Shown: positions 6,750-32,000 of the stretch, one piece after another
How positions within the stretch are numbered: the stretch's first letter is position 1
How the letters are laid out: every line of letters begins with the position of its first letter
NCBI GenBank assembly: GCA_013336225.1
Contig: JAAXUC010000007.1
Coordinates: forward strand, 27,554 to 59,553
Direction: 5' to 3'
Length of the DNA: 32,000 nt
Source: Candidatus Moraniibacteriota bacterium
GTDB lineage: Bacteria > Patescibacteriota > Minisyncoccia > Moranbacterales > GWC2-37-73
The notes under the pieces: generated by a model
The model's database searches: none
What the model was told of the DNA's origin: nothing
The model's input: the letters and a program-made list of their open reading frames with translations, nothing else
Program-made: the position numbers and the translations under genes

Positions 6750-8579
6750 ATGACAGCAAATGAACTGCGAGAAAAATATTTAGAATTTTTTGCTTCCAAG
6801 GGACACACCATTATTCCTTCTGCTTCAGTGATTCCCAGGGATACTGATGCTTCAACCTTATTCACCACGGCTGGTATGCATCCTTTGGTGCCATATTTGC
6901 TGGGCGAAGATCATCCAGGTGGAAAACGCGTGGCCAATGTGCAGAAATGCGTGCGCACTGGTGACATTGATGACGTGGGAGACAATCGACATTGTACATT
7001 TTTTGAAATGATGGGGAACTGGAGCTTTGGCGACTATTTCAAGAAAGAAGCGATTGAATGGAGCTTTGAATTTTTGACTGACCCAAAGTGGCTGGGACTT
7101 GATAAAAACAGGTTATATGTGACTGTTTTTAAGGGCGAAGATGGAATTCCTCGCGACGAAGATGCCATTGCTGCTTGGCAGGAAGTTTTTGCCAAGGCTG
7201 GCATGGAGGTTGAGGTGGCTGGCGAGGATGAAATGATCACTGGAAATGTGCGCATCATTCCACTTGGAAAAGATGACAATTTTTGGATTGCAGGGCAAAC
7301 GGGTCCTTGCGGGGGAGACACGGAAATGTTCTATGACATGCGCCCCGAGGAAGGAGTGCTTGCTGGAAAATTTGGCGAGTTGGTGGATGGCTTTAGGATC
7401 ATGGAAATTTGGAACAATGTTTTCATGGAATTCAACAAAACTGCTGAAGGAAAATATGAAAAACTTGCCAAACCAAACGTGGACACTGGCATGGGGGTGG
7501 AACGCACTTTGGCCGTGCTCGACGGGCAATACACTGTTTTTGAAACAGAATTGTTCAAGCCTATTTTTGAAAAAATTTCGGAAATTTCTGGCTGCGGATA
7601 TCAAGACAGCCAGGAAACAGAAAAAGCTTTCAGAATTATTGCTGATCATGTGCGCGCCAGCGTTTTCATGATTGCCGATGGAGTCAGTCCGCTCAACACT
7701 GGCGCAGGCTATGTTTTGCGTCGCCTCATTCGCAGAGCTGTGCGCTATGGCAAATTGCTGGGCATTGAAAAAGATTTCACAGTCAGTGTGGCAGAAATTG
7801 TGATTCAGAAATTCGGAGATTTTTATGGAGAGCTTAAAAAGAATCGTGAAACCATTTTTGCGGAACTTAAAAAGGAGGAAGAAAAATTTAGAAAGACTTT
7901 GGAGAATGGACTTAGACAGTTTAATAAGTTGTCAGTCGCCAGCATTTCAGGCAAGGATGCCTTTGATTTGTATCAAACATATGGTTTTCCTTTGGAGCTT
8001 ACGGTTGAGTTGGCCAAAGAAAAAGCAATAATTGTGGATGAAAAAGAATTTGAGTTAGAATTGAAAAAGCATCAGGATCTTTCTCGCACCGCTTCAGCTG
8101 GAATGTTTAAGGGTGGACTACAAGATAGCGGGGAAGAAACAGCTAAATTACACACTGCTGCACACCTTCTTTTGGCTGCACTTAGGCAAGTTTTGGGAGA
8201 TGAGGTGTTTCAAAAAGGTTCGAACATCACGCCAGAGCGCCTGAGGCTTGATTTCTCGCACACGGAAAAGGTGACGCCTGAGCAGCTTAAAATGATAGAA
8301 AGTCTCGTCAACGCAAGTATAGAGGCCCATTTGGATGTTATGCATGAAGAAATGACCCTGGATGCAGCCCGCAAGGCCAATGCAATGGGTGTGTTTGAAT
8401 CAAAATATGGCGAAACTGTGACAGTATATTCAATTGTGGATGATGGCGCGCGTATCATTAGTCGTGAGATTTGCGGCGGTCCGCATGCCAAAAACACTGG
8501 GGAATTGGGACATTTCAAGATTCAAAAGGAAGAAGCTTCATCAAGCGGAGTAAGAAGGATAAAAGCGATCTTGGAGTAA
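6750..8579 (+). CDS. alaS: Alanine--tRNA ligase, short form ending after the editing domain
   Basis: Class II catalytic core (FFASKGH, LFTTAGM). The editing domain shows HTAAH (HxxxH) and CGGPH (CxxxH). At 609 aa there is no C-Ala domain. Confidence 0.95.
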   Translation: MTANELREKYLEFFASKGHTIIPSASVIPRDTDASTLFTTAGMHPLVPYLLGEDHPGGKRVANVQKCVRTGDIDDVGDNRHCTFFEMMGNWSFGDYFKKEAIEWSFEFLTDPKWLGLDKNRLYVTVFKGEDGIPRDEDAIAAWQEVFAKAGMEVEVAGEDEMITGNVRIIPLGKDDNFWIAGQTGPCGGDTEMFYDMRPEEGVLAGKFGELVDGFRIMEIWNNVFMEFNKTAEGKYEKLAKPNVDTGMGVERTLAVLDGQYTVFETELFKPIFEKISEISGCGYQDSQETEKAFRIIADHVRASVFMIADGVSPLNTGAGYVLRRLIRRAVRYGKLLGIEKDFTVSVAEIVIQKFGDFYGELKKNRETIFAELKKEEEKFRKTLENGLRQFNKLSVASISGKDAFDLYQTYGFPLELTVELAKEKAIIVDEKEFELELKKHQDLSRTASAGMFKGGLQDSGEETAKLHTAAHLLLAALRQVLGDEVFQKGSNITPERLRLDFSHTEKVTPEQLKMIESLVNASIEAHLDVMHEEMTLDAARKANAMGVFESKYGETVTVYSIVDDGARIISREICGGPHAKNTGELGHFKIQKEEASSSGVRRIKAILE

Positions 8580-18233: not shown

Positions 18234-18434
18234 AAAGCAGGCAGCGTTGTGCCAAGCTCTAATGTGATTATATCACAAACAAAAGACAAAATACAACATA
18301 CAAAATGCAATAAGAAATATAATGTATATTTGGTGATAATTAGATAATTAAATTAAAAAATAAATCATAATTAATAGACAATTTACAATAAACATTGGAT
18401 TTTGAATATTGTATTTTGGATATTGAAAAAGTAT

Positions 18435-20366
18435 ATGAGTAAAATTCTCGGAATCGACTTAGGAACAACAAACAGCGCGATGGCAATCGTGACTGGAGGT
18501 AAACCAGAAATCCTCGAAAACAAAGAGGGAAATCGCACCACACCTTCAATGGTGGCAATCTCAAAAACAGGAGAACGCTTGGCTGGACTATTGGCAAAAC
18601 GACAATCAGTGACCAACCCTGCCAACACTTTGTATTCAATCAAGCGTTTGATTGGGCGCGCCTATCACGACGCTGAAGTTCAACGGGATGAAAAATTGAT
18701 GCCATACAAAATTGTGCACGCTGGCGAAAACGTCAAAGTGACCATGGGTGACAAAGACTATTCTCCACAAGAAATTTCAGCCATGATTTTGGGAAAATTG
18801 AAAGCTGATGCTGAAGAAAAATTGGGAGAAAAAATCACAGATGCTGTGATCACAGTGCCTGCATATTTCGATGATGCTCAAAGAAAAGCCACCAAGGAAG
18901 CTGGAGAAATTGCAGGTTTCAATGTGCGTCGCGTGATCAATGAACCGACAGCAGCCGCTTTGGCCTATGGTTTTGACAAGAAAGCTGATGAAAAAATCGC
19001 AGTCTATGATTTGGGTGGAGGAACTTTCGACATTTCAATCTTGGAAGTTGGAGGGGACACAGTGGAAGTGAAATCAACCAATGGCGACACTCATCTTGGA
19101 GGAGACGACTTTGATCAAATCATCATTCAATGGATCATCGATGAATTCAAAAAACAAGAAGGCATCGATCTTTCCAATGATCCTTTGTCATTGCAACGCA
19201 TCAAAGAAGCTGCTGAAAAAGCCAAGATTGAACTTTCAACCGCGCAAGACACTGAAATCAATCAACCTTTCATCACTTCTGATGCATCGGGTCCAAAACA
19301 TTTGGTGATGAAAATGACTCGCGCAAAATTGGAAGAATTGGTTGGCGACCTTGTGCAAAAAACACTTGAGCCAGTGAAAAAGGCACTTGCTGATTCAAAA
19401 CTTTCAGTAGCAGATATCAATGAGATCGTGATGGTGGGAGGAATGACTCGCATGCCATTGGTTTTGCAAACAGTTGAAAAATTCTTTGGCAAAAAACCAA
19501 ACATTTCCGTGAACCCTGACGAAGTGGTGGCGCTTGGTGCAGCCATTCAAGGAGGAGTGCTTGAGGGAAGCGTGAAAGATGTTTTGCTTTTGGATGTGAC
19601 TCCACTGACTCTTGGAATCGAAACCATGGGAGGAATTTCAACTCCGCTGATTGAAAGAAACACCACGGTGCCAACGAGCAAAACTCAGACCTTCTCAACC
19701 GCTGCTGACAATCAACCAGGCGTTGAAATTCATGTGTTGCAAGGAGAACGCGAAGTTGCTTCAGGCAACAAGACCCTTGGAAAATTCTTGCTCGATGGAA
19801 TTCCACCATCACCTCGCGGAGTGCCACAAATTGAAGTGGAATTTGACATTGATGCCAACGGAATTTTAAATGTAACTGCCAAAGACAAAGCAACTGGAAA
19901 ATCACAATCAATCAAAATCGAAGCATCATCCGGTCTTTCAAAGGAAGAAATTGAAAAAATGAAAAAAGATGCTGAAATGCATGCTGATGAAGACAAGCAG
20001 AAGAAAGAATTGGTTGAAGCTCGCAACATGGCTGACACACTTGTCTATACAACTGAGAAAGCCATGCGCGATGCTGGTGAGAAGGTGACCGAAGAGGAAA
20101 CCAAGCCAGTCAAAGAAGCAATTGAGGAATTGAACAAAGTGAAAAACGGTGAGGACTTGAATGAAATTAAAGCCAAAACCGAAACACTTTCGCAAGCTGC
20201 GCAAAAGATTGGTGAAAAACTCTATGCTGCTGCCGAGGAAACAAAAAAGGCTGAAGCTGAAGCCAACGCCGGCGCCGAAGGCGCACCAGTGAAAGAGGCA
20301 GAAGTTGAAGGCGACAAGCCTGCTGACGAAGCAGGGGAGGAGAAAAAAGACGAAGACAAAAAATAA
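18435..20366 (+). CDS. dnaK: Molecular chaperone DnaK (Hsp70)
   Basis: [30 protein letters not shown] and an acidic C-terminal tail. The start is set at Met 12 of the listed ORF. Confidence 0.97.
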
Positions 20367-20423: not shown

Positions 20424-21227
20424 ATGAACAATACAGAAGAAGTTATACAAACTAGAATTTCTGCATATGGTCCAGGTTATTCAATAATTGATTTTGCATT
20501 GGATACGACAATTTTAAACTCCAATAATGATGGTGATAAAAAAATTTTCACCTTTGCATTCTTAGGGAGAAAAATAATTTGGACAAATCCAATCCAGGAT
20601 AACAAAGGTGGGCAATATGTGCAACGTATAACAATAGATTGGCTTGATCAAAAAGAATATTCGGACTATGGAGTAGTGATGAAATTTTTGAGTGCAGTTT
20701 GTTTTCTGGTTGATGGAATTGTTTTGGATGTGTTATTTGATGCGTCTGGACCATTCCCTGGTCCTAGATGTTCCAGGAAAGTTAGTTTTTCATGTTTGAA
20801 TGGATATGAAATTGATTTTCTTATTGCCAGTGTGGATTGGGAAAAAATTTCAGATAATAATTGGGCAATGTTGGCGTATTACAGACAAGGAGTAAATTCA
20901 AGAAGTTCGCATACAGCATTTCTATCTTTCTGGAATATATTAGAAGTTTATTTCAAAAGAAATCATGATGATATTAAAAAGTACATAAATGAAGAAATTG
21001 AAAAAATGCAAAGTTTTGAAGAGTGGAAGAAGAAAAATGGTTTAAATTTTTATAGGAAATTAAAAGATACAAGGCATAAATCAGCACATGTTCTTTTGAA
21101 TGATGATTCCATGAGTCAAATGCAAAATCCTGATAATCCAATTGAATATATTGAAATGAATGAAAATAAATTGATTATAAAAAGTTTAAGTGAAAAAATA
21201 ATTAATTCATGTCTTTATAAAAAATAA
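20424..21227 (+). CDS. Hypothetical protein with a C-terminal HEPN-like region (Rx4H)
   Basis: 267-codon ORF. The helical C-terminal half AYYRQGVNS..FLSFWNILEVYF ... TRHKSAH has R217-x4-H222 at 21072-21089. The functional assignment is motif-level only. Confidence 0.65.
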   Translation: MNNTEEVIQTRISAYGPGYSIIDFALDTTILNSNNDGDKKIFTFAFLGRKIIWTNPIQDNKGGQYVQRITIDWLDQKEYSDYGVVMKFLSAVCFLVDGIVLDVLFDASGPFPGPRCSRKVSFSCLNGYEIDFLIASVDWEKISDNNWAMLAYYRQGVNSRSSHTAFLSFWNILEVYFKRNHDDIKKYINEEIEKMQSFEEWKKKNGLNFYRKLKDTRHKSAHVLLNDDSMSQMQNPDNPIEYIEMNENKLIIKSLSEKIINSCLYKK

Positions 21228-21322
21228 AAGATGCTATAAAATTCATCATCATCCACATCACTCACGAAAATCTCAAAGAAGCGATGCATGAAAATTGAAG
21301 TCGAGGCAAATGGGGAATATAT

Positions 21323-21393
21323 AAATTGGATAAAACGAGAAACAGAATAAATTTTGCCAAAGAAAAAAGCCCTGCGATTTCGCGGGGCTTTTT
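21323..21393. repeat. Copy A of a ~70-nt module (conserved 45 nt plus terminator hairpin) 3' of ORF 21413..22111
   Basis: aaattggataaaacgagaaacagaataaattttgccaaagaaaaaagccctgcgatttcgcggggcttttt. Compare copy B at 22292-22364. Confidence 0.6.
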
Positions 21394-21412
21394 GTTTCAC
21401 ATTCTTTTAATG

Positions 21413-22111
21413 CTAATGGAGTGATGCATTGACATTGAATTTGTCATGAAGAAAAGTCCGTATGCCGATATCGTCCAAAGTTCTTTCTTTTGTGGTTATG
21501 TCTTTTGTCCACTTGAAAAGTATTCCATATGTCATGAATCCCTTGCTACTCTTGAAAAACCTTATAAACTGGGCATCATGTTTTTCAAAGCAGTTCTTGA
21601 TTTTTGAAATAGTCTCTTCCTCTTTCATTCCTGCGAGAAAATTGACTATCTCTTTTTCACGGCGAAATTCCAATTCAATTTTTAAAAAGTCATAAGATTC
21701 GGCTGCAAAAATTGGTTCGCGCACATTGAATGGTGGTGGATATGCTTTAATAACTTCCATTGCAATCAATTTGCGCATTTGGCCGGAAAGCATTGCCGCG
21801 GTTTTTGGATGCATTTTCTTATTATTCATGGCTCCCTGAAAAAACATTTCCAGGTCTACTTGAAAACCGCCTGTTGTCTTGCTTTTACTTATTGACCATG
21901 ATAATACATTGCCGCCGCTATAGAAATTGAGTTGCTTAATCCACGTCGGCATCATTTTGCGAAGCCATGCTCGATGTCCATTGAGAAAGCATTTTGTTTC
22001 GCAGGAAATCTTTACAGTTGTTCCGAGGTCTGGCTCATAAATATTCTCCAGGCCTAGTAGCAATTTTTTCAACGCAATTGGTTTTCTGACTCCAGGTTTT
22101 GTTCCTTGCAT
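21413..22111 (-). CDS. Hypothetical protein; possible Pol-beta-fold nucleotidyltransferase (weak motif)
   Basis: AGGAGG lies 5 nt upstream of the ATG. FYSGG-x18-DLEM (21848-21919) resembles hG[GS]...[DE]h[DE]h, but the spacing is longer than in minimal NTases. Confidence 0.7.
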   Translation of the reverse strand: MQGTKPGVRKPIALKKLLLGLENIYEPDLGTTVKISCETKCFLNGHRAWLRKMMPTWIKQLNFYSGGNVLSWSISKSKTTGGFQVDLEMFFQGAMNNKKMHPKTAAMLSGQMRKLIAMEVIKAYPPPFNVREPIFAAESYDFLKIELEFRREKEIVNFLAGMKEEETISKIKNCFEKHDAQFIRFFKSSKGFMTYGILFKWTKDITTKERTLDDIGIRTFLHDKFNVNASLH

Positions 22112-22291
22112 GACATCCTCCTGTCACAATCTTTTTATTTGTGCCCGTCCAGGGCCGTTCATTTTTTGCAGATCCTGTCTGCTTGTACACTGCCGCCTCC
22201 TTGTCGGCCATTTTGTTAAAAAACTCATTTCACCCAATATTTATTGGTTTTTTAATATATCAACAAATCTATGCAAAAGCAAGGGATATGC

Positions 22292-22364
22292 AAATTGGAT
22301 AAAACAAGAAACAAGATAAATTTTGCTAAATAAAAAAGCCTCGCGTCACTGCGCGGGGCTCTTT
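22292..22364. repeat. Copy B of the ~70-nt module, 3' of ORF 22381..22938
   Basis: aaattggataaaacaagaaacaagataaattttgctaaataaaaaagcctcgcgtcactgcgcggggctcttt. Confidence 0.6.
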
Positions 22365-22380
22365 GTGCTTAGTTGTGTTT

Positions 22381-22938
22381 TTACTGCATGATGTAATCGA
22401 CTCCTGTGCCGAAATTTGCTCGGCTTCGTTGGTCACTGTAGCGGACTGGATTCCATGGCGAGAGATAATTCTCCTCGAAATATTTCATGAATAAATCAAA
22501 TTGCTTTGAAGTTTCAGGAAAAATCCCAATAGTTAATTCGTGACTGTTCATGACAGCGCGTACGACTTCAAATTGAAAATCCTGCTCCTCTATGAATCCG
22601 CGTTTTGTGAAATGAAGCAGAAAAATCTGACGAAAGAGAAAGGCCACGCCCGCAATCAATTCAGCAGGGTTAAAACTTTTTTCATGTAAAATTTCATGTG
22701 CCTCTTTGTCGCGTCCTTCTTTATTGGCAAGAATCATTTCAATCTGTTGTCTTGCTTCAACCTCACTGCCCATTGGGTTGATTATGAAGAAGTTCAGTGC
22801 TTGTGTAATGAATAGTGAAAACGTTTTCAAGTCATCGCTCGTTTCGCTTTGTTTTAGCAAATACATACTCTTGAACAAAACATTATTGAATATGCTTGGG
22901 GTCAAATAACGAGTTGCCAAAATTTGTAATCTTCTCAT
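22381..22938 (-). CDS. All-helical hypothetical protein with Rx4-5H and HExxH strings
   Basis: AAGGAG lies 7 nt upstream of ATG 22938; the listed TTG start at 22956 lies inside that SD. Motifs are RDKEAH (22696-22713), overlapping HEILH, and RAVMNSH. Confidence 0.7.
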   Translation of the reverse strand: MRRLQILATRYLTPSIFNNVLFKSMYLLKQSETSDDLKTFSLFITQALNFFIINPMGSEVEARQQIEMILANKEGRDKEAHEILHEKSFNPAELIAGVAFLFRQIFLLHFTKRGFIEEQDFQFEVVRAVMNSHELTIGIFPETSKQFDLFMKYFEENYLSPWNPVRYSDQRSRANFGTGVDYIMQ

Positions 22939-23114
22939 GAGAATCTCCTTTTTCAATTGGGAATGTGCTGCTTTTGGATTTTACCACTAACTTTGTATTA
23001 TACTCCAAAATAAGCCAAAAGTCAAGGTAGTAGGGAATTGAGGCTTTTCTCAGGCTCAAAGTGATGGTGCCAAAAAAATGCGGTCGTCTGAATTTGGCGC
23101 CAGGTTGGAACACG

Positions 23115-23151
23115 AAAAAAGACCTTGCGATTTTGACCGCAAGGTCTTTTA
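23115..23151 (-). terminator. Intrinsic terminator of the 23884..23189 operon
   Basis: Stem agaccttgcg / cgcaaggtct. The A6 run on the plus strand gives a T-run on the minus strand. Confidence 0.8.
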
Positions 23152-23188
23152 TTTTGGATTGATAATGCAACTTTGTAGTTTTATGAGA

Positions 23189-23521
23189 TCATGGTTGATC
23201 TTTTGCTTCAGTATTGCTTTTCAACAACACTTTCAGGAATAGGTCTGGAAATTTTTTTCGAATCATTCTTCCAATGAAAAAGAAAATGATCACTGTCAGC
23301 AGATTGAGAACCGAAAATGACTTGTCGTCAATTTGGCCTATCAGGATGAAGCTGAAATTGACCGAGATGATCGTTGTCAACATTGCCATTGATCCAAGAA
23401 TCGCATGTTGTTTTTTGGGTAGTTGCGCCAATCTGATGGCGTCATAATATGCACTTGAAAGGGGAAAAACCATGAGTAAGAAAATGCTGACAAGAAATTT
23501 GATGTTAAATAGTTCTGGCAT
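23189..23521 (-). CDS. Small integral membrane protein (about 3 TM segments)
   Basis: AAGGAG overlaps the upstream gene's TAA stop, indicating translational coupling. Hydrophobic segments include FLVSIFLLMVFPL, ILGSMAMLTTIISVNFSFILI and LNLLTVIIFFFI. Confidence 0.75.
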   Translation of the reverse strand: MPELFNIKFLVSIFLLMVFPLSSAYYDAIRLAQLPKKQHAILGSMAMLTTIISVNFSFILIGQIDDKSFSVLNLLTVIIFFFIGRMIRKKFPDLFLKVLLKSNTEAKDQP

Positions 23522-23533
23522 GGTTATTCTCCT

Positions 23534-23884
23534 TTAGCATTCTGCACATTCGGAAATGAAAAGCACATTTATTCCAAATTGCAGTTGGATTGTTGGATGC
23601 GTGTCAGTGTAGGTCAAACATCCATCCAGGGCTGATTCATTCGTTCTCATCATTTCTTCAAAAATTTCCATTTCTGCGCAGATGTCCTCAGCTCCTTCTT
23701 CAAGCTCCTCAATGTTTTCTCCGAGCGATTGTTGATAGGCGTTTCGGATGTCCTCTGCATCAAAGATGATTTTTTTGACAAATTCCCGGGTTGATTCGGG
23801 CAGGTTCGGAAGTTTTTCAATGGCTGAGGCGTAGGCAATGAAATAATCAACATCATCGATAAAGACCTCCATCTCCGTGATCAA
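23534..23884 (-). CDS. Acidic hypothetical protein
   Basis: The ORF has a TTG start at 23884 with GAGGA upstream; ATG 23872 is an alternative. It is co-oriented with and 12 nt from the membrane-protein gene. Confidence 0.6.
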   Translation of the reverse strand: MITEMEVFIDDVDYFIAYASAIEKLPNLPESTREFVKKIIFDAEDIRNAYQQSLGENIEELEEGAEDICAEMEIFEEMMRTNESALDGCLTYTDTHPTIQLQFGINVLFISECAEC

Positions 23885-24042
23885 GGAGGAATCCTCGAAT
23901 TCAGGATCTATAAAAAGGTTTCTGTGGGTGCTGATTTCATGGGAGCCTCCTTTCTTTGATTTGTTAAATAGCTATCTTTGTTATGGGGCATAATTGAAAA
24001 AAAGTCCATAGCGCGCGATGAAATTAAAAGCAAAAAATGTTT

Positions 24043-24081
24043 AAAAAAATAGAGCTCAGTGAAATTTCACTGAGCTCTTTA
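24043..24081 (-). terminator. Intrinsic terminator of ORF 24092..24448
   Basis: Near-perfect palindrome agagctcagtgaaa/tttcactgagctct. The A7 run on the plus strand gives a T-run on the minus strand. Confidence 0.8.
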
Positions 24082-24091
24082 AATATTTGCT

Positions 24092-24448
24092 TCATTTTCT
24101 AGCAGACTTTTCGATGTTTTCATATACGGTTTCCAACATAATCATTATTTCTTTAATGAGTGCTTTTTTTGTTGGAATAAGTCTTAACTTGTTGTTAAAG
24201 TCTTTTGCAGCCATGAAAAGAAGAAGTTCAATAGAGTTTCCAATCATTTCATTGCGAATGTCAATTCGCACCGCGACGGTTATTTTCAGAAGGTCTTCAA
24301 GAGTAATAATATCCCTCTCGATGAGCTCATGGTGCGCATCGCTGCTGTTTTTTTCACGCTCAAGTTTGAGTTCTTCTTGTATTTCAGTGCAATAGTCATG
24401 GATTTTTGCAAGCATGTCGCAATTAAATGGCCTGTCTAGCTTTCTCAT
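24092..24448 (-). CDS. Helical hypothetical protein
   Basis: GAGGTG SD upstream and a terminator downstream. No motif recognised. Confidence 0.7.
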   Translation of the reverse strand: MRKLDRPFNCDMLAKIHDYCTEIQEELKLEREKNSSDAHHELIERDIITLEDLLKITVAVRIDIRNEMIGNSIELLLFMAAKDFNNKLRLIPTKKALIKEIMIMLETVYENIEKSARK

Positions 24449-24532
24449 GGTTCACCTCGTCCTCGTTTATTTTTTTAAAGTGCTTGTTTGTGTGTGGTAT
24501 TTTTATCCCTGATGCTATATTTAAGCGTAAAA

Positions 24533-24554
24533 TGACAAAGTTGTCAAGCATGCT
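24533..24554. promoter_or_regulatory. Candidate operator palindromes in a divergent spacer
   Basis: TGACAA-ag-TTGTCA (24533-24546) is immediately followed by the perfect palindrome AGCATGCT (24547-24554). Confidence 0.3.
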
Positions 24555-24641
24555 GTTTGTGCACCCTTTACAATAAACAGATTTAATGTTTAACTCATAT
24601 ATTGCTGTTCTTTAAACTATATCTAAAGGGGAGGTGAGATC

Positions 24642-25031
24642 ATGGAAGGATTCTTTGCTAGTGAGGAAAATCGGCAATTGTATGTTCAATACTATATGGA
24701 TCTCCATCAAGCCATTGAAGACTTTAGTGTTGCGCTTAAAATTGAGCTCAATAACCATTTTGCCAATCCCGGTAAGATTATCTCCATAGGAAATTCCCAT
24801 CTTGGTTTTCATGGATTCTTGCGTTGCGCATACAGGCTTTTGTATGAGAGGCCAAATTATTTTAATGTGAGGGCATTTAATAATGAAAAAGAAGATGTTT
24901 ATCGCGTTGGCATCTTGCTGGAATTGGAAAATTTCTTGGTAAATCTTCCAGGCGCGACAATTCCGCTGCGACCGCCAGCCATTAGTGCTTGGCTCTCGCT
25001 TAAACAACGTGATAGATATGTCCAATTTTAA
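24642..25031 (+). CDS. Hypothetical protein
   Basis: GGGGAGGTGA SD upstream and a terminator downstream. No motif recognised. Confidence 0.75.
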   Translation: MEGFFASEENRQLYVQYYMDLHQAIEDFSVALKIELNNHFANPGKIISIGNSHLGFHGFLRCAYRLLYERPNYFNVRAFNNEKEDVYRVGILLELENFLVNLPGATIPLRPPAISAWLSLKQRDRYVQF

Positions 25032-25066
25032 AAAGGCGAAATTTCATTGAAATATCGCCTTTTTTC
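25032..25066 (+). terminator. Intrinsic terminator
   Basis: Stem aggcga(aatttc) / (gaaata)tcgcct, followed by tttttt. Confidence 0.7.
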
Positions 25067-25081
25067 TATGTCCAATAAATC

Positions 25082-25090
25082 TGCTATAAT
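25082..25090 (+). promoter_or_regulatory. Extended -10 promoter
   Basis: TGcTATAAT lies 28 nt upstream of ATG 25118. Confidence 0.45.
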
Positions 25091-25117
25091 GAATGTATTA
25101 ATAATCAAAAATAAAAT

Positions 25118-26176
25118 ATGAATCGTAAAAAAATTGAAATGCTGCTTGGCTCGTTGACGATGGTTGTGGCTTTTTTTTCATGGCTATCCGTGAAAAGTGC
25201 CATTGTTGTGCCTGACTCCAGCACTTGGATGGTTCCAATGGTTCTTTTTTCATTATATGCTGTCTTAATTTGTTCAGATGTCATTCTTTTTCGCAGCGTG
25301 CTGGCCTTAGAGCTTGTTTTGATTGGTTCACTTTTGCTGAGCGCTGTTTTTGCTTTTCACTGGATTCAATTTGTTGCAATTTTGCTTGGCGCATATTTCA
25401 TATTTTTGTCATCAAGAAAAATCAGGGAAGACATGGATTTGAATGTTAAAATCAGCATTTGGAAATCGTTGCAAGTTGGCAAGACATATTTGCTCATTGC
25501 TCTGAGCTTAGTGATTGCAGCACAATACTTTTTTGTGATGAACAGTTTTGATGGAGAGAAAAAAGTTCCACATTTTGATGTGAGTTTTATCACGAAGAAA
25601 GTTGCCATTCCTTTTGTCTCAGCAATCAATCCACAATTTGCAGTGCTCAAGGATGAAACATTGACTGTTGACCAATTCATTTTGCAATCTCAACAAAATG
25701 CTCTTGAGAATGTTGGCATGTCAGAAGAAAATGAGAAAATTTTGGATGAAAATATTCCAACCAACCTCACGCCTTTGCAAAAAGAAGATCTCAAGAAGCA
25801 GGCTATTGAAAATTTCACTGGTGCGCAAACTCAACTTTTGCAAAAAAATCAAGAACTTATTTTGAAAAATGGCAGGAAACAATTCAGTGATCAGGTGGGT
25901 GTTACATTGACCGGAAGTGAAAAAATTTCAGATGTGTTCACTGGGCTTGTGAGCAGCAAGATTGATGATTATTTCAATCCAAAGGTTTCTGGTGGAGAAA
26001 AAAGTTCTGTTTTCCCAATGATTTTGGCAGCAGTGTTGCTTTTGACTATTTATCCGTTGGGTTCAATTTTGAGCATTGCTTGGTTTCTGATTGTGAAATT
26101 GGTGATAATTGCTTTACTGAAATTTAAAGTCATGAGTGTTGGCGTGATGACTGTTTCAAAGGAAACTCTTGAATAA
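25118..26176 (+). CDS. Multi-pass membrane protein, unknown function
   Basis: About 4 N-terminal and 2 C-terminal hydrophobic helices flank a polar central region. No SD. Confidence 0.8.
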   Translation: MNRKKIEMLLGSLTMVVAFFSWLSVKSAIVVPDSSTWMVPMVLFSLYAVLICSDVILFRSVLALELVLIGSLLLSAVFAFHWIQFVAILLGAYFIFLSSRKIREDMDLNVKISIWKSLQVGKTYLLIALSLVIAAQYFFVMNSFDGEKKVPHFDVSFITKKVAIPFVSAINPQFAVLKDETLTVDQFILQSQQNALENVGMSEENEKILDENIPTNLTPLQKEDLKKQAIENFTGAQTQLLQKNQELILKNGRKQFSDQVGVTLTGSEKISDVFTGLVSSKIDDYFNPKVSGGEKSSVFPMILAAVLLLTIYPLGSILSIAWFLIVKLVIIALLKFKVMSVGVMTVSKETLE

Positions 26177-26226: not shown

Positions 26227-26342
26227 TTTTTGCTTCGCCTATTTCCTCTTGAGAGCACGCTTCGCAGCCGAAATCTATGGCTGCTCACTCGGACCTCGCT
26301 CTCGCTCGCTACGGCTTCAAGAGAAAACAGGCGAAGCAAAAA
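26227..26342. other. 116-nt GC-rich long hairpin (candidate structured RNA or palindromic element)
   Basis: The 26-nt arms tttttgcttcgcctatttcctcttga / tcaagagaaaacaggcgaagcaaaaa have 2 mismatches. They enclose a 64-nt GC-rich core with an inner stem gcagcc/ggctgc. Confidence 0.4.
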
Positions 26343-26388
26343 TGCGAGTTAATTTTTGAAATCATATGTTGTGTATATTTCCTGAAGT

Positions 26389-26425
26389 TATAATCCAATT
26401 AGCACTCCCGGCAAGGGATTGCTAA
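26389..26425 (+). promoter_or_regulatory. TATAAT -10 box plus second CIRCE operator upstream of dnaJ
   Basis: TATAAT spans 26389-26394. CIRCE TTAGCACTC-ccggcaagg-GATTGCTAA spans 26399-26425, with one mismatch in the right arm. No convincing -35 was found. Confidence 0.8.
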
Positions 26426-26489
26426 TTTTTTTATTTGGTTGTATTATATATTGGTAACAAAATAGGTAAAATGGTAAATATTTGTATAT

Positions 26490-27584
26490 ATGGCTGACTA
26501 TTATAAAATTTTAGGTGTTGATAAGAACTCATCCGATGATGAGATTAAAAAGGCTTATCGAAAGCTTGCTCACAAGCATCATCCAGACAAGCAAGGTGGA
26601 GATGCGGAAAAATTCAAGGAAATCAATGCGGCCTATCAAGTGCTTTCGGACAAATCCAAGCGTCAGCAATATGACCAATTCGGATCTGGCTTTGAGCAGC
26701 GAGGTGGTGGTGGCGGATTTGGTGGTTTTGGAGGCCAGGGTTTCAGTGGCTTTTCTCAAGGCGGGCAAGATTTTGATTTTGGCGACGGGTTTGAAGACAT
26801 TTTTTCAAACATTTTTGGTGGCGGTCAAAGTGGTGGAAGAAAACAGGACATGCGAAAAGCTGGCAATGACATTCAGGTGGATGTGGAAATGAATTTTGAG
26901 GAGATGGTGAATGGTGCTCATCGTGAAATTGAATTGTATCAGCGAGTGCTTTGTGATGTTTGCGCTGGATCTGGCGGCGAGCCAGGAGCAAAAGAGCAGA
27001 CCTGCGAAACTTGCAAAGGCAGCGGAAAGATTCACAAGACTGTGAGCAGCTTCTTTGGTTCATTTTCACAAGCCTATGTTTGTCCATCTTGCCAAGGGAT
27101 GGGAAAAACTTTTTCACAAAAATGTCACAAATGTCGTGGGGAGGGCAGAGTTAAGCAAGCTCGCAAAATTCCAGTTGACCTTCCGGCAGGAATTTCTGAT
27201 GGACAAACTGTTTCAATGCAAGGACAAGGTGAAGCGGGAGAGCGCGGCGCACAATCTGGAGATTTATACATCACAGTGCATATCACAAAGCATCCTAAAT
27301 TTACACGTGAAGGAAATAATTTGCTTTCAACTGAAACGATTTCATTTTCGCAGGCTGCACTTGGAGATAAAATAAATGTTGCAACAATTGATGAAGTTGT
27401 GAAAATGAAAATTCCTGCCGGCACGCAATCTGGAGAAATGTTTCGCATCAAGGGGCAGGGTGTTCCAAGCCTTGGTCGCACCAATCGCGGCGACCATTTG
27501 GTGAAAATCATTGTTCAGGTGCCAAAAAACCTCTCTCGCGACCAAAGAAAAATTTTGGAAGAGTTGCAAAAAGAGGGACTTTAA
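26490..27584 (+). CDS. dnaJ: Molecular chaperone DnaJ (type I)
   Basis: J domain with HPD, a G/F-rich region, and four CxxCxGxG motifs ([32 protein letters not shown]). Confidence 0.96.
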
Positions 27585-27603
27585 AGCAAGAAACATACTT
27601 TTC

Positions 27604-27633
27604 AAAAAATGCCTCAAATGAGGCATTTTTTTG
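27604..27633 (+). terminator. Intrinsic terminator after dnaJ
   Basis: Stem atgcctca / tgaggcat, followed by a T7 run. Confidence 0.8.
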
Positions 27634-27651
27634 TTTTTGTAACAAAAATTA

Positions 27652-27680
27652 TTGACAAAAACCAATAGGGATGCTACATT
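27652..27680 (+). promoter_or_regulatory. Promoter of the giant repeat-protein gene
   Basis: TTGACA (27652-27657), 17-nt spacer ending in TGc, TACATT (27675-27680). Confidence 0.55.
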
Positions 27681-27747
27681 TTGCTGTCATCTCTTTTGGT
27701 TGATATTTTGTTTAAATTGTTTATAATTTTTTTATATATTTATCCTT

Positions 27748-30700
27748 ATGACCTGGTTTAAAAGCAAGCTGACAAGTATGCAGAAATCTTTAAGTGGCGC
27801 ATCAACAATCGTTAAAAAGAAATTTGATCTTAAGAAATCGACCGCAGTTTTGCTTGTGGTTTTTTTATTGTCCGGAATCGCTTTGGTGCAAGTCAATGCG
27901 CAGACAAAGAAAGTCATCGATGCGTATATTCTGGATATCACACACAGGATTAGAAATAATGATATTTCAAAAAAAGCAAAAATAAGTTACAAAAAACTCG
28001 GACTTAGAAATTCTATCAGATCAAAAGATATTAAAAATGGCGAAGTTAAAACATCTGACATTAAAGATGGTGCAGTGACACTTGCCAAGCTTGCTGGAAA
28101 CGTCATTGGACAAATCGCTGTTCAAAATGGAACAATCTCCTCAGGCTCAATTCAAGATGGCGCTATCGTGACGATTAAGCTGGCCGATGGATCAGTGACG
28201 ACTGTGAAGATTGAAGATGGAGCTGTTGATACCAATAAACTTGCTAATGACAGTGTGACCAGTGCTAAGATTGCAAATGGCACAATCAATAGCATTGACC
28301 TTAATGATGGAATCATCACTGATGTGAAATTGGCTGACGGAGCTGTGACGACTGCCAAAATTTTGGATGGTTCAATCACGGCTGGCAAATTGGAAGCAGG
28401 ACTTTTGGCTTCCATCACTTTGGCTGATGGCAGCGTGACCACAATTAAGCTTGCTGACGGCGCAGTTACTGATGTGAAATTGGCTGACGGATCAGTGACA
28501 ACTGCCAAGCTTTTGGATAATGCAGTTGTGACGAGCAAATTGGCTGATGGTAGTGTGACTGATGTGAAAATTGTCGATGGTGCAATCACCAATGGAAAAT
28601 TGGCTGATGGATCAGTGACCACTTTGAAACTTGCTGATGACTCTGTAACCAGCGCCAAGATTGTGGATGGATCAGTGCAAACACTTGATTTGATTGATGG
28701 CATCATTACTAATGTTAAACTTGCTGACAACAGTGTGACGACCGCCAAAATTTTGGACGGTTCAATTACGGCTGGAAAAATTGCCAATGGAGCAATTCTT
28801 GCAGTTAGTTTGGCTGATGGTAGTGTGACTAATGCAAAAATCGCTGATGGGGCAATTGATAGTTTGAAACTGGCTGATGATTCTGTGACCAGCGCAAAAA
28901 TCCTTGACTCTGCTGTGACTGCCAGCAAATTGGCTGACGACAGTGTAACCGCAGTTAAGATTGTTGATGGAGCTGTGACCAATGGAAAACTTGCTGATGG
29001 ATCAGTGACCACAATTAAAATAGGGGACGACGCAATTACAACTGCAAAAATTGTTGACGGCACAATCGTGGGACAAGATCTTGCTGATTCAATAATCAGC
29101 TCTATTAAGATTGCTGATGGTGCTGTGACAGCAATTAAGATTGCTGATGATGCAATCATCACGGCAAAGATTGCAGACGGAGCTGTGACTAATGGAAAAC
29201 TTGCAAATGACGCTGTGGCCACAATCAATCTTATTGATGGCAGTGTTGTGACAACTAAAATTGCTGACGGAGCTATCGTTAATGCAAAAATTGGTGATCA
29301 GGAAATTAGTGGCGCAAAATTGGCTGCAAATATAACTATTGATACCACTGGTTCAATCACGGCTGCATCATTTACTGACGGCGTTGCCACTATTGCTGGT
29401 GGAGATATTACAGCTAATAATATTTCTATCCTAGGTTCAATCACCTCAGCTGTTGGTGGATTTGTGGGAGACCTTGTTGGAAATGTAATCGGAAATGTGA
29501 CGGGAAATGTCACCGGAAATCTTTTTGGAAATGCTGACAGTGCAACCAATGCTGATAATGCGACAACTGTCACTGATGGTGTATATACAACTGGCTCATA
29601 TGCTGATCCTGCTTGGATCACAAGTTTGAATGCTGTTAAGTTGTTTGGAGTCTTCACTGGAAATGTTGTCGGCAATGTGCTGGGAAATTTGACTGGAAAC
29701 GTGACTGGAGACGTCACTGGAAATCTCTTTGGAAATGCTGATAGTGTTACCAATGGAATCTATTCAACTGGTTCATATAGTGACCCAGCTTGGCTTAGCG
29801 GAATTGGAGCTTCCAAGATTATCGGAACGATTGTTGGAACGCAAGTTGCTGATGGCACACTTACTGGCGGAAAATTGGCTTCTGACGGCAGCATGGTTAA
29901 GTCAATCGTGGCTGGGCCAAATGTGACGGCAACTAATAATAATGATGGAACTTGGACAATTGATATTTCCGGGGGCGTGGGACTTGGAACTATCACTGGC
30001 GTGACCGCAGGCGATGGTCTTGTTGGTGGCGGAAATATTGGAGATGTCACTTTGGATATAGGCGCTGGAACAGGAATGGTTGTGGGTGTGAATACGATTG
30101 GAATTGCAGATGCTGGAGTCAACACTCAGCAAATTGCTGATGGCAGTGTGGTTGCAAGCAAATTGGCTGATGGCAGCGTGATCACTTCAAAAATTGCTGA
30201 TGGCGCAGTTACTGGTGGAAAAATTGCTGCTGGAACTATTTTGGACACCATGTTGGCTGACGGATCAGTGACCACTTCAAAATTGGTTGATAATGCTGTG
30301 ACGGGAATTAAGCTTGCTGATGACAGCGTGGGGACTTCAAAACTTCAAAACTTGGCAGTGACAACCGTCAAGCTGGCTGATGGAAGTGTGACTGCGGCAA
30401 AAATTTTGGATGCCACCATTACGGCTGGAAAAATTGTTGATGGGACTATCACCACAATCAAACTTGCTGATGACAGTGTGACCACTGCTAAAATTGTGGA
30501 TGGAACAATCATGGCTACTGATTTGGCTGATGGAATCATCACCACAATTAAACTTGCTGATGACAGCGTGACCACTGCTAAAATTGTGGATGGAGCTGTT
30601 ACTGCTGGAAAACTTGCTGATGGGAGTGTTGTTAGTTTGAGTCTGGCAGATGGATCAGTGACAACTGCTAAAGTTGCTGACGGTGCAATTACTGATATTA

Positions 30701-32000
30701 AGCTTGCTGATGACAGCGTGACCACTGCTAAAATTTTGGACAGCGCTGTGACTACCGGAAAACTTGCTGACGGAAGTGTTGTCACAAGCAAAATCGCAGA
30801 TGCAACCATCACTTCAGGAAAAATTGCAGACAGTGCAATCACCCCTGCTCATCTTGCTGATAGTGCTGTTACCAATGCCAAGCTTGCAGCTGACGCTGTG
30901 ACAACTGACAAAATTGCTGACGGCACAATCGTGGGAGCTGATTTAGCCTCAGATATTGATATCACAACTACTGGTGTGGTTGTTGCTACTGGTTTCGTGG
31001 GTGATATGATTGGAAACATTTCTGGCAACGCTGAAACTGTGACTGACGGAATTTATGGTTTGGTTGATAATACTTTCTCTGGGGTTAATACTTTTGCTCA
31101 AACGATTGTGGGAAACATTTCTGGTAATGCTGGAACTGTGACTGACGGAGTTTATGCAACAACTGATCAAACAATTTCAGGTATCAAGACATTTACCAAC
31201 GGAATCATTTCTGATGTAACTGGAAACTTGACTGGCGATGTTGCTGGAAACGTTACTGGAGATGTGACGGGAAATGTTGTTGGTGATTTAACTGGAAATG
31301 TAACTGGAGACGTAACTGGAGACGTAATCGGAAACGTGACTGGCGATGTGACTGGTGATCTAACCGGAAATGTTGTTGGCGACGTCACTGGAAATTTGAC
31401 TGGTGATGTTATTGGAAATGTAACAGGCGATGTGGTTGGAAACGTTGTTGGAAATTTAACTGGCGACGTCACTGGAAATCTTTTTGGAAATGCAACCACA
31501 GCTACAACTGCAGACACCGTGCTTGATGGAGCAATCACCAACGTCAAGCTTGCAGCTGACGCTGTGACAACTGACAAAATTGCTGACGGCACAATCGTGG
31601 GAGCTGATTTAGCCTCAGATATTGATATCACAACTACTGGTGTGGTTGTTGCTACTGGTTTCGTGGGTGATATGATTGGAAACATTTCTGGCAACGCTGA
31701 AACTGTGACTGACGGAATTTATGGTTTGGTTGATAATACTTTCTCTGGGGTTAATACTTTTGCTCAAACAATTGTTGGAAACATTTCTGGTAATGCGGAA
31801 ACTGTGACCAATGGTGTGTATGCAATCGGAGATCAGACAATTGCTGGAGTTAAAACATTTACATCTGACATTATTGGAAACATCACAGGCAATGCAGCAA
31901 CTGTGACTGATGGAGTTTATGCGACAACTGATCAAACAATTTCAGGTATCAAGACATTTACCAATGGTATCGTTTCAAACGTTACTGGAAATGTAACAGG
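27748..32000 (+). CDS. Giant secreted/surface repeat protein, 3'-partial (at least 1417 codons)
   Basis: My codon-by-codon translation of frame 1 from ATG 27748 found no stop up to nt 32000. The N-terminus is signal-peptide-like (KKKFDLKKSTAVLLVVFLLSGIALVQVNA-Q). It is missing from the ORF track because there is no stop inside the window. Confidence 0.85.
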   Translation, partial: MTWFKSKLTSMQKSLSGASTIVKKKFDLKKSTAVLLVVFLLSGIALVQVNAQTKKVIDAYILDITHRIRNNDISKKAKISYKKLGLRNSIRSKDIKNGEVKTSDIKDGAVTLAKLAGNVIGQIAVQNGTISSGSIQDGAIVTIKLADGSVTTVKIEDGAVDTNKLANDSVTSAKIANGTINSIDLNDGIITDVKLADGAVTTAKILDGSITAGKLEAGLLASITLADGSVTTIKLADGAVTDVKLADGSVTTAKLLDNAVVTSKLADGSVTDVKIVDGAITNGKLADGSVTTLKLADDSVTSAKIVDGSVQTLDLIDGIITNVKLADNSVTTAKILDGSITAGKIANGAILAVSLADGSVTNAKIADGAIDSLKLADDSVTSAKILDSAVTASKLADDSVTAVKIVDGAVTNGKLADGSVTTIKIGDDAITTAKIVDGTIVGQDLADSIISSIKIADGAVTAIKIADDAIITAKIADGAVTNGKLANDAVATINLIDGSVVTTKIADGAIVNAKIGDQEISGAKLAANITIDTTGSITAASFTDGVATIAGGDITANNISILGSITSAVGGFVGDLVGNVIGNVTGNVTGNLFGNADSATNADNATTVTDGVYTTGSYADPAWITSLNAVKLFGVFTGNVVGNVLGNLTGNVTGDVTGNLFGNADSVTNGIYSTGSYSDPAWLSGIGASKIIGTIVGTQVADGTLTGGKLASDGSMVKSIVAGPNVTATNNNDGTWTIDISGGVGLGTITGVTAGDGLVGGGNIGDVTLDIGAGTGMVVGVNTIGIADAGVNTQQIADGSVVASKLADGSVITSKIADGAVTGGKIAAGTILDTMLADGSVTTSKLVDNAVTGIKLADDSVGTSKLQNLAVTTVKLADGSVTAAKILDATITAGKIVDGTITTIKLADDSVTTAKIVDGTIMATDLADGIITTIKLADDSVTTAKIVDGAVTAGKLADGSVVSLSLADGSVTTAKVADGAITDIKLADDSVTTAKILDSAVTTGKLADGSVVTSKIADATITSGKIADSAITPAHLADSAVTNAKLAADAVTTDKIADGTIVGADLASDIDITTTGVVVATGFVGDMIGNISGNAETVTDGIYGLVDNTFSGVNTFAQTIVGNISGNAGTVTDGVYATTDQTISGIKTFTNGIISDVTGNLTGDVAGNVTGDVTGNVVGDLTGNVTGDVTGDVIGNVTGDVTGDLTGNVVGDVTGNLTGDVIGNVTGDVVGNVVGNLTGDVTGNLFGNATTATTADTVLDGAITNVKLAADAVTTDKIADGTIVGADLASDIDITTTGVVVATGFVGDMIGNISGNAETVTDGIYGLVDNTFSGVNTFAQTIVGNISGNAETVTNGVYAIGDQTIAGVKTFTSDIIGNITGNAATVTDGVYATTDQTISGIKTFTNGIVSNVTGNVT
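28051..29340 (+). repeat. Coding array A: 43 uninterrupted 30-nt (decapeptide) units
   Basis: Consensus x-x-K-[LI]-A-D-G-[SA]-[VI]-T, for example TIKLADGAVT DVKLADGSVT TAKLLDNAVV. No indel across 1290 nt. Confidence 0.9.
29470..29733 (+). repeat. Two short tetrapeptide arrays, each followed by a TDGxY..GSYxDPAW module
   Basis: 29470-29529 has 5 units (DLVG NVIG NVTG NVTG NLFG). 29662-29733 has 6 units ending in NLFG. Confidence 0.8.
30124..30963 (+). repeat. Coding array B: 28 uninterrupted decapeptide units
   Basis: Same consensus and register as array A, running from TQQIADGSVV to GADLASDIDI. Confidence 0.9.
30880..31103 (+). repeat. Intragenic duplication, copy 1
   Basis: Base-for-base identical by eye to 31546-31769 (224 nt, offset 666 nt). 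Confidence 0.85.
31213..31488 (+). repeat. Coding array: 23 uninterrupted 12-nt (tetrapeptide) units [DN]-[VL]-[TVIAF]-G
   Basis: DVTG NLTG DVAG NVTG ... DVTG NLFG, ending in the same NLFG-N-A cap as the smaller arrays. Confidence 0.9.
31546..31769 (+). repeat. Intragenic duplication, copy 2
   Basis: Identical to 30880-31103. Similarity continues with scattered mismatches to about 31795. Confidence 0.85.

Follow-up and report, generated by a model that had tools for sequence, protein, structure and literature searches.

The stretch of DNA analysed in this study (32,000 nucleotides of contig JAAXUC010000007.1 from a Candidatus Moraniibacteriota bacterium; in the following, the window) ends within a gene for a long, repeat-built protein, which we refer to as the fibre protein. 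The gene lies on the forward strand, follows dnaJ, starts at position 27748 and still reads open at the window edge (32000). NCBI taxonomy places its source, Ca. Moraniibacteriota, in the Parcubacteria group of the Patescibacteria, bacteria that are also referred to as the Candidate Phyla Radiation (CPR). In the following, we describe the gene, its product and its relatives, and argue that the product is very probably exported and displayed at the cell surface as an extended repeat protein.

Frame +1 can be translated from the ATG at 27748 to the window edge without encountering a stop, which yields 1417 codons. Over the same interval, the three plus frames contain 0, 81 and 162 stop codons, respectively, and the three minus frames 17, 126 and 40; given the base composition, the probability of 1417 stop-free codons arising by chance is about 5e-42. 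The ATG is the first start codon after an in-frame stop at 27724. We therefore delimit a coding sequence of at least 1417 codons (27748–32000, plus strand), on the basis of the translation, of homologues and of an orthologue alignment. Thousands of homologues match frame +1, and collinear orthologues conserve both the N-terminus and the start, so that the gene is, by all sequence comparisons, real and coding. These results bear out a first-pass annotation, made from the DNA letters and a list of their open reading frames (ORFs), which had proposed a real gene with a stop-free frame from 27748. That annotation also correctly explained why the gene is invisible in the ORF list, which holds only minus-strand entries between 28152 and 31935: the frame has no stop inside the window, and ORFs that run off its end are left out. 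The six minus-strand ORFs of 106–358 amino acids (aa) that overlap the fibre gene in this interval (e.g. 28152–29228, 358 aa) were rejected as genes. Given the minus-frame stops and the fact that all homology falls to the plus frame, they most probably arise as antisense artefacts because the repeat sequence is poor in stops.

The gene appears to be transcribed on its own. An intrinsic terminator with a 12-bp stem and a T-run (27604–27631, plus strand) follows dnaJ, and behind it lies the promoter-like site that had been pointed out in the first-pass annotation, TTGACA-17-TACATT with an upstream TG (27652–27680, plus strand; 10 of 12 consensus matches). A second, better match, TTGATA-16-TATAAT (27700–27727, plus strand; 11 of 12), ends 20 nucleotides (nt) before the ATG. 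Both promoter-like sites are defined by their consensus matches only.

The encoded protein is acidic (net charge -62), free of cysteine and composed mostly of T, G, A, V, D and I. Its first 52 residues (27748–27903; this and all following features lie on the plus strand) form a Sec-type signal peptide or N-terminal anchor. The lysine-rich n-region, with eight lysine or arginine residues among the first 32 positions, leads into a hydrophobic core (aa 31–49; Kyte–Doolittle hydropathy 2.35), the sole strongly hydrophobic segment of the protein, and this is followed by VNA and, across the potential cleavage site, Q. The same succession of a basic n-region, a hydrophobic segment and a small-x-Ala motif before the mature part is found in all six family members compared, with a conserved Ala at position -1. 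The N-terminal sequence had been quoted accurately when it was first suggested to be an export signal or anchor, and its charge, its hydrophobicity and the layout in the orthologues agree with that suggestion.

The remainder of the protein is built mostly from repeats, as had been claimed. It starts with a conserved proximal segment (aa 53–95, 27904–28032), which carries the motif 'ISYKKLGLRNSI' together with degenerate decapeptides and is recognizable both in the orthologue alignment and, by its motif, in distant relatives. In generalized form, this motif reads I(S/A)Y(K/S)KL.L.NSI (27982–28017, aa 79–90). While it stands at the start of the mature protein here, it recurs within distant decapeptide-repeat proteins, two of which (P0013 and P0027) carry it internally several times as 'SPTAAIAYSKLDLANSI'; it has the appearance of conserved punctuation in this repeat class.

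The proximal segment is followed by a first run of 43 decapeptides in perfect register (aa 96–525, 28033–29322), which is evident from its periodicity, from the orthologue alignment and from matches to PHROG families. Its consensus is x-D-[GDN]-[SA]-[VI]-T-T-x-K-[LI], and not a single insertion or deletion occurs across the 43 units. Autocorrelation of the decapeptide region peaks at lags of 10, 20 and 30, and every fifth position of the repeat is hydrophobic. A central module without decapeptides (aa 526–795, 29323–30132), delimited by its sequence, the orthologue alignment and an outside match, comprises a cap (AANITIDTTG), G-N-x-x-G repeats, two GNADxVTxGxY..DPAW units, and SMVKSIVAGPN..DGTWT and GAGTG segments. 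It gives way to a second run of about 27 decapeptides (aa 796–1065, 30133–30942), which is collinear with the orthologues.

Beyond this point, the protein continues with an insertion that the orthologues lack. It opens with a first distal cassette, ASDIDITTTG..GNAETVTDGIY..DQTISGIKTF (aa 1066–1155, 30943–31212), and proceeds with a run of about 24 G[ND]xT tetrapeptides, which can also be read as octapeptides (aa 1156–1250, 31213–31497; Tandem Repeats Finder periods of 12 and 24, supported by autocorrelation). A third, short decapeptide run (aa 1258–1287, 31519–31608), recognized from its sequence, and a second distal cassette with further GNAxTVTxGVY..DQTIxGxKTF units (aa 1288–1417, 31609–31998) extend to the window edge. 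A part of this architecture arose by an internal duplication of 327 bp, whose copies (30871–31196 and 31537–31862) are 93% identical and relate aa 1042–1149 to aa 1264–1371.

Whole-protein scans against Pfam and NCBIfam found no family above threshold. Consequently, there is no full-length match to a characterised family, the one kind of match which the first-pass annotation had considered fatal to its proposal, and its failure to place the repeats in a named family is borne out by these databases. Several partial matches were rejected: TIGR04294 (the NCBIfam H-X9-DG-CTERM family; 31 bits, aa 224–234) sums up 'DG' repeats and lacks a C-terminal His-X9-DG, the Gly-zipper matches in Pfam (aa 1156–1250) reflect low-complexity G-x-x-x-G, and matches to an 'ARID domain' and a 'pyridoxal kinase' in the PDB are of the same low-complexity kind.

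By contrast with the earlier impression that the protein only vaguely recalls phage tail fibres, this likeness is strong. The PHROG tail-fibre families phrog_28766, phrog_892 and phrog_21412 are matched with E-values of 6e-133, 5e-132 and 2e-74, respectively, and a tblastn search of GenBank phages found the repeats in 132 records, in many cases within genes that carry a tail-fibre or minor-tail-protein annotation. Among these are tail fibres of T7-like cyanophages (Synechococcus phages S-CBP4 and S-TIP37), minor tail proteins of Arthrobacter and Gordonia phages, the tail fibre of a Geobacillus phage and a 'host specificity protein J' of a Paracoccus phage. Over the records listed, the shaft repeat is 31–45% identical to that of the window protein, and phage fibres share its modular build with caps and G-N-rich repeats.

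The repeat is by no means confined to phages. In a large protein (metagenomic) database, more than 4000 proteins match with E-values of 1e-10 or better, under source names such as 'phage minor structural protein', 'phage tail spike protein', 'tail fiber domain-containing protein' and 'beta strand repeat-containing protein'. In phage relatives, including the 'tail spike' proteins of Geobacillus, the repeat sits between a Prophage_tail N-terminus and a C-terminal Peptidase_S74 chaperone; in cellular relatives, it occurs alongside DUF5907, PF25296 ('Decapeptide repeat region') and sorting domains of the type IX secretion system (T9SS). A crude hydropathy test found a signal-like N-terminus in 49 of the 120 closest relatives. 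The cellular proteins come from Bacteroidota, Kapaibacteria and Calditrichia (DUF5907/PF19264, PF25296, Por_Secre_tail). Like the window protein, they combine a signal peptide with long decapeptide runs, are large (1100–2400 aa) and are of uncharacterised function. Unlike it, these cellular proteins have interspersed DUF5907-type modules and T9SS sorting domains and belong to diderm cells, whereas the window protein has neither and presumably belongs to a monoderm CPR cell. DUF5907 was not encountered in a segment-wise Pfam scan, and PF25296 was not matched, despite the ten-residue periodicity, by the whole protein at E<=1 or by segments at E<=5 (threshold 45 bits). The distant relatives themselves score only 26–28 bits against PF25296.

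Two modules deserve separate mention. The DQTIxGxKTF motif, which occurs at aa 1140–1150, 1361–1374 and 1394–1404, resembles BppL_N (PF18338), the N-terminal module of BppL, a trimeric receptor-binding protein of the lactococcal phage TP901-1. BppL_N scores 27.1 bits on the segment aa 1262–1417 alone (cut-off 25.8; aa 1361–1374, 31828–31869) and 14.8 bits on the whole protein, and there is a weak PDB sequence match to 3ejc. In BppL, the motif is N-terminal within a small baseplate protein, whereas the window protein carries at least three copies of it, all of them internal and distal. The central module has its best outside match (P0121) between tail-tube and Baseplate_J genes on a myovirus-like contig, and a further match (P0128) at a cellular Bacteroidota locus beside T9SS-sorted proteins; otherwise, its search returned mostly short proteins with BppL_N or Gly-zipper annotation that match the G-N-rich part only. 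Judging from these contexts and the other module matches, phage tail proteins and the secreted proteins of cells share every module type. The window protein is thus no orphan. It belongs to a very large decapeptide-repeat class of phage and cellular secreted proteins, which is already visible in database annotations, and it has clear orthologues in other Moraniibacteriota.

These orthologues are the closest full-length relatives, uncharacterised proteins of 915–1080 aa from Moraniibacteriota metagenome-assembled genomes (MAGs) and from related Logan and JGI contigs. They include P0001, P0002 and P0004 ('hypothetical protein WAV16_03985'), and family genes lie in DOKE01000026, JBBQZC010000005 and AMFJ01004251. 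Collinearity with them begins at the signal peptide and extends to about aa 1075, with 39–56% identity, and the N-terminus of the window protein is conserved in P0001. The proximal motif, the decapeptide runs and the cap motifs are common to the window protein and its family, as is the central module, except in P0004, which lacks it. At the C-terminus, all orthologues have a domain of about 330 aa, which carries a 'SRWSTIYADAINF' motif. This tip domain has no match in Pfam, PHROG or the PDB, and Peptidase_S74 was not found in it; a search with it returned just six further proteins, of which the sole one with a named source comes from a Candidatus Moranbacteria MAG. The orthologues thus differ from phage fibres in having a lineage-specific tip instead of the Peptidase_S74 chaperone.

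Compared to its orthologues, the window protein is enlarged in three places: the first run holds about 27 extra decapeptides, a GNAD...DPAW unit is duplicated, and the distal insertion exceeds 340 aa and is still open at the window edge. Sequence comparison thus identifies the window copy as a lineage-specific expansion of a family of about 1050 aa. In this light, the term 'giant' used in the first-pass annotation is overstated, because much of the size is repeat expansion. If the C-terminal end resembles that of the orthologues, the complete protein would comprise at least about 1750 aa.

The orthologues also share their genomic neighbourhood. In three of five orthologous loci (L002, L004 and L006, with L004 apparently from the same source as L002), dnaJ lies upstream, as in the window. 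In all five, the gene that follows immediately encodes a protein that spans the membrane once and has a PsbP_2-like domain outside the cytoplasm (positions 5714–6394 in L002, 13367–14074 in L003, 6633–7349 in L006 and 5498–6214 in L007). The product has 226–238 aa, with a cytoplasmic part at the N-terminus, then the single transmembrane helix and the PsbP_2-like domain, which carries the conserved motif ADQRTGCD(V/I)R..GINF; four copies compared are 38–51% identical, and no PHROG family was matched. Beside the window copy, this gene is not visible because the window ends first, but it presumably follows there as well. Further downstream in the orthologous loci are ordinary cellular genes (for an ADP-forming acetyl-CoA synthetase, recJ, nrdD/G and murA). 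In two of these genomes, DnaJ shares only 64–66% identity with the DnaJ of the window, and an arrangement shared over this distance points to an old, conserved locus rather than to a recent prophage insertion.

This bears on the idea that the gene belongs to a phage, i.e. that it encodes the tail fibre of a prophage, a prophage remnant or a tailocin which inserted beside dnaJ and is used in particles. The strongest family matches are to PHROG tail-fibre families, after all, and close module relatives lie in phage tail gene blocks. Yet Pfam assigns the window ORFs to hrcA, grpE, dnaK (18402–20366), dnaJ (26490–27584), alaS, cysS, dnaB, L21, corA, mnmA and a gene similar to coupling proteins of type IV secretion systems, with the fibre gene being the next after dnaJ and its terminator. 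These scans found no phage gene; genes for a capsid, portal, terminase, tail tube, baseplate or integrase were absent from them as well as from the gene tables and scans of the orthologous loci. Moreover, the same neighbours recur in the distantly related genomes, and no close relative was found on the contigs of a viral collection. Finally, phage tail fibres assemble in the cytoplasm, whereas the window protein has a Sec signal or anchor in the place where a virion-attachment domain would sit; N-terminal virion or baseplate attachment domains, of the T7 tail-fibre type or Prophage_tail, were not found in Pfam scans. We therefore regard a phage gene as extremely unlikely. Diversification by a diversity-generating retroelement was rejected as well, as the Pfam scans of the window ORFs yielded no reverse-transcriptase gene.

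How, then, might the protein work? On balance, we lean towards a model in which the protein, once exported, forms a surface fibre that is probably trimeric, resembles a tail fibre and serves in attachment. A chromosomal gene of Moraniibacteriota would give rise to an acidic, cysteine-free protein that is exported by the Sec pathway and forms a long fibre at the surface of the cell. Its cell-proximal end would be marked by the N-terminal signal or anchor, the two decapeptide shafts (43 and about 27 units) would supply length, and the central module would act as a junction between them. Further out, the G[ND]xT repeats and BppL_N-type cassettes would lead to a C-terminal tip past the window edge, the presumed counterpart of the lineage-specific domain of about 330 aa in the orthologues. 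The fibre might be retained either by an uncleaved N-terminal anchor or by a membrane partner, and the PsbP-like single-pass membrane protein is a candidate for such an anchor or for an assembly factor. Trimerisation would take place outside the cell and yield a fibre tens of nanometres long, with the presumed polarity of a tail fibre, that is, with the N-terminus at the carrier and the C-terminal tip at the target. The ligand of the tip may sit on the surface of a partner cell, of a host cell or of a substrate, so that the protein could serve in host attachment. Changes in repeat number would tune the reach of the fibre; compared to the window copy, the orthologues are shorter by about 370 aa or more.

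The trimeric state is suggested by the company that the modules keep. A PDB sequence search gave one meaningful match, chain H of 9eg4 (E-value 2.8e-5, or 7.5e-9 with the repeat profile), a trimeric head-decoration protein on the capsid of the Legionella phage LME-1, whose distal part was not modelled (PMC12407071). As the modules of the window protein are shared with trimeric tail fibres, with Tal extensions and with this capsid decoration fibre, it most likely trimerises after export. The G[ND]xT run gave weak, non-significant matches to the triple beta-helix of T4 gp5.

Several points weigh against the fibre model. It presupposes that Moraniibacteriota are episymbionts in need of a host-binding fibre, and a cleaved signal would call for some other means of surface retention than the N-terminus. 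The C-terminus, with any tip domain or anchor, lies past the window edge. The remaining points concern the fold of the repeats and the assembly of the distal part, and each of these is linked to a different view of the protein.

As to the fold, AlphaFold2 (AF2) predicted aa 53–1100 as a monomer, with orthologue rows in the alignment, at a mean predicted local distance difference test score (pLDDT) of just 39, and this model was left out of the fold search for that reason. For 20 decapeptides with an in-register alignment of 42 rows, the best of five models reached 68.9 and the four others 47–57, and the five disagree with one another; a Foldseek search of the best one against the PDB gave zero matches. 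In addition, the repeat profile matches solved solenoids of pentapeptide-repeat proteins, as well as the decapeptide region of DotG/IcmE, with E-values of 1e-9 to 1e-10, and a monomeric solenoid is compatible with such matches. The protein might accordingly be a structural component of the envelope, in which the decapeptide runs form a monomeric beta-solenoid that serves as a spacer, a sheath or a surface-layer-like coat on a monoderm CPR cell.

This view can draw on specific solenoid matches (the designed beta1 protein, 4yfo, at 2.8e-9, and Np275/276 at 2.4e-4) and on the hydrophobic residue at every fifth position, a trait shared with pentapeptide-repeat proteins (Rfr fold) and with the Legionella DotG/IcmE region. 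It would also suit the acidic, cysteine-free composition rich in Thr, Ala, Val and Gly, which resembles that of many surface-layer proteins, and the conserved, housekeeping-like place beside dnaJ. However, among the pentapeptide-repeat families (PF00805/PF13599), Pentapeptide_4 scores 13.1 and 12.6 bits, far below the cut-off of 38, and the third repeat position (G/D/N) is a poor fit for the small residue that faces inwards in the pentapeptide core. The profile matches, that to DotG/IcmE included, are probably driven largely by periodicity. The best AF2 model of the decapeptides has one short turn per decapeptide and no right-handed quadrilateral beta-helix, no lattice-forming or SLH-type domain was detected in the protein, and BppL_N, Prophage_tail, Peptidase_S74 and the T7-type fibres all come from trimeric fibres. 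We consider a solenoid coat unlikely for these reasons, and a trimeric fibre the likelier state, because the monomer predictions are poor and the co-occurring modules all stem from trimeric contexts. Against BFVD, the same decapeptide model retrieved only predicted phage tail fibres that share the repeat, a sequence-driven result.

As to the assembly, a contig of the Logan assembly (SRR11449212; 4275 nt), found by an exact look-up of DnaJ, is 100% identical to the window from 26308 to 30582, where it ends inside the fibre gene. Codons 1–945 are thereby backed by a second assembly, while the last 472 codons, in which the frame is intact, rest on one. The unconfirmed distal part contains the 93% duplication, before which the Logan contig stops: it ends about 290 nt before the first copy, which points to a break in the assembly graph caused by the distal repeats. 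A search for the 3' end in genome, metagenome and viral collections returned relatives at 40–55% or no match. It is conceivable that the distal ORF is an assembly artefact, with collapsed or mis-joined repeats, or a decaying pseudogene, and that the true protein has about 1050 aa. The end of the Logan contig, the duplication and simple tetrapeptide-coding repeats beyond it, and the absence of the distal insertion from the orthologues all speak for this. Nevertheless, the 472 further codons stay open while the other frames are full of stops, and the duplicated copies differ at 7% of their positions, so they are distinguishable in an assembly. Furthermore, the extra modules are genuine family modules that occur in P0004 as well, and the expansion of the first run lies inside the part confirmed by Logan. 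An artefact is hence very unlikely in our estimation, and we retain the fibre model with an expanded distal part.

The rest of the window contains some further features of note. Between dnaK and dnaJ lies a gap of about 6 kb (20424–26176), which begins with a MauJ-like ORF (20424–21227) and continues with four minus-strand ORFs (21413–22111, 22381–22956, 23189–23521 and 23534–23884); the three of these that were scanned have no Pfam match. The last ORF of the gap (25118–26176) encodes a hypothetical protein of 352 aa; the proteins encoded upstream of dnaJ in L006 and L002 share 68% and 29% identity with it, respectively. The alanyl-tRNA synthetase ORF (6750–8579) encodes 609 aa only, corresponding to the catalytic core and the SAD domain, while typical bacterial alanyl-tRNA synthetases are longer. 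ARAGORN found no tRNA genes in the window. Finally, the coupling-protein-like gene (1182–3422) encodes a TrwB/TraG-type ATPase of 746 aa with a C-terminal treble-clef zinc finger, which is probably part of the patescibacterial type IV secretion or DNA-uptake machinery (PMC12102498).

Large surface proteins of CPR bacteria are thought to mediate contact with host cells (PMC8080830). A surface fibre as modelled here would fit this proposal by analogy, even though the proteins described there use different domains. Large repeat-rich surface proteins in CPR genomes and phage-fibre-like repeats in annotated cellular secreted proteins were already known; what is specific here is the CPR context, the marked expansion of the repeats and, among the orthologues, the fixed PsbP-like partner and the lineage-specific tip. 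The decapeptide repeat itself is abundant, with its thousands of representatives extending from the tail fibres of cultured phages to secreted proteins of several phyla. As no solved structure is known for this repeat, a soluble fragment of the fibre protein would fill a structural gap.

How the ultrasmall CPR/Patescibacteria find and hold their partners is little understood outside the Saccharibacteria, where type IV pili have been implicated. Being very probably exported and built like a tail fibre, and belonging to a family whose members have their own type of tip and a constant membrane partner, the fibre protein is a concrete candidate for host recognition in Moraniibacteriota. As a possibility that we put forward tentatively, a CPR lineage may have taken a tail-fibre kit into its chromosome, provided it with a Sec signal and a PsbP-like partner, and turned it into a trimeric docking fibre whose tip sets the specificity and whose reach is set by rapid change in repeat number. 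The PsbP-like protein would then be a dedicated anchor or assembly factor, and the cell would recognise its partner in the manner in which a phage recognises its host. If such a domestication did take place, these episymbionts would possess a device for host recognition that is distinct from type IV pili.

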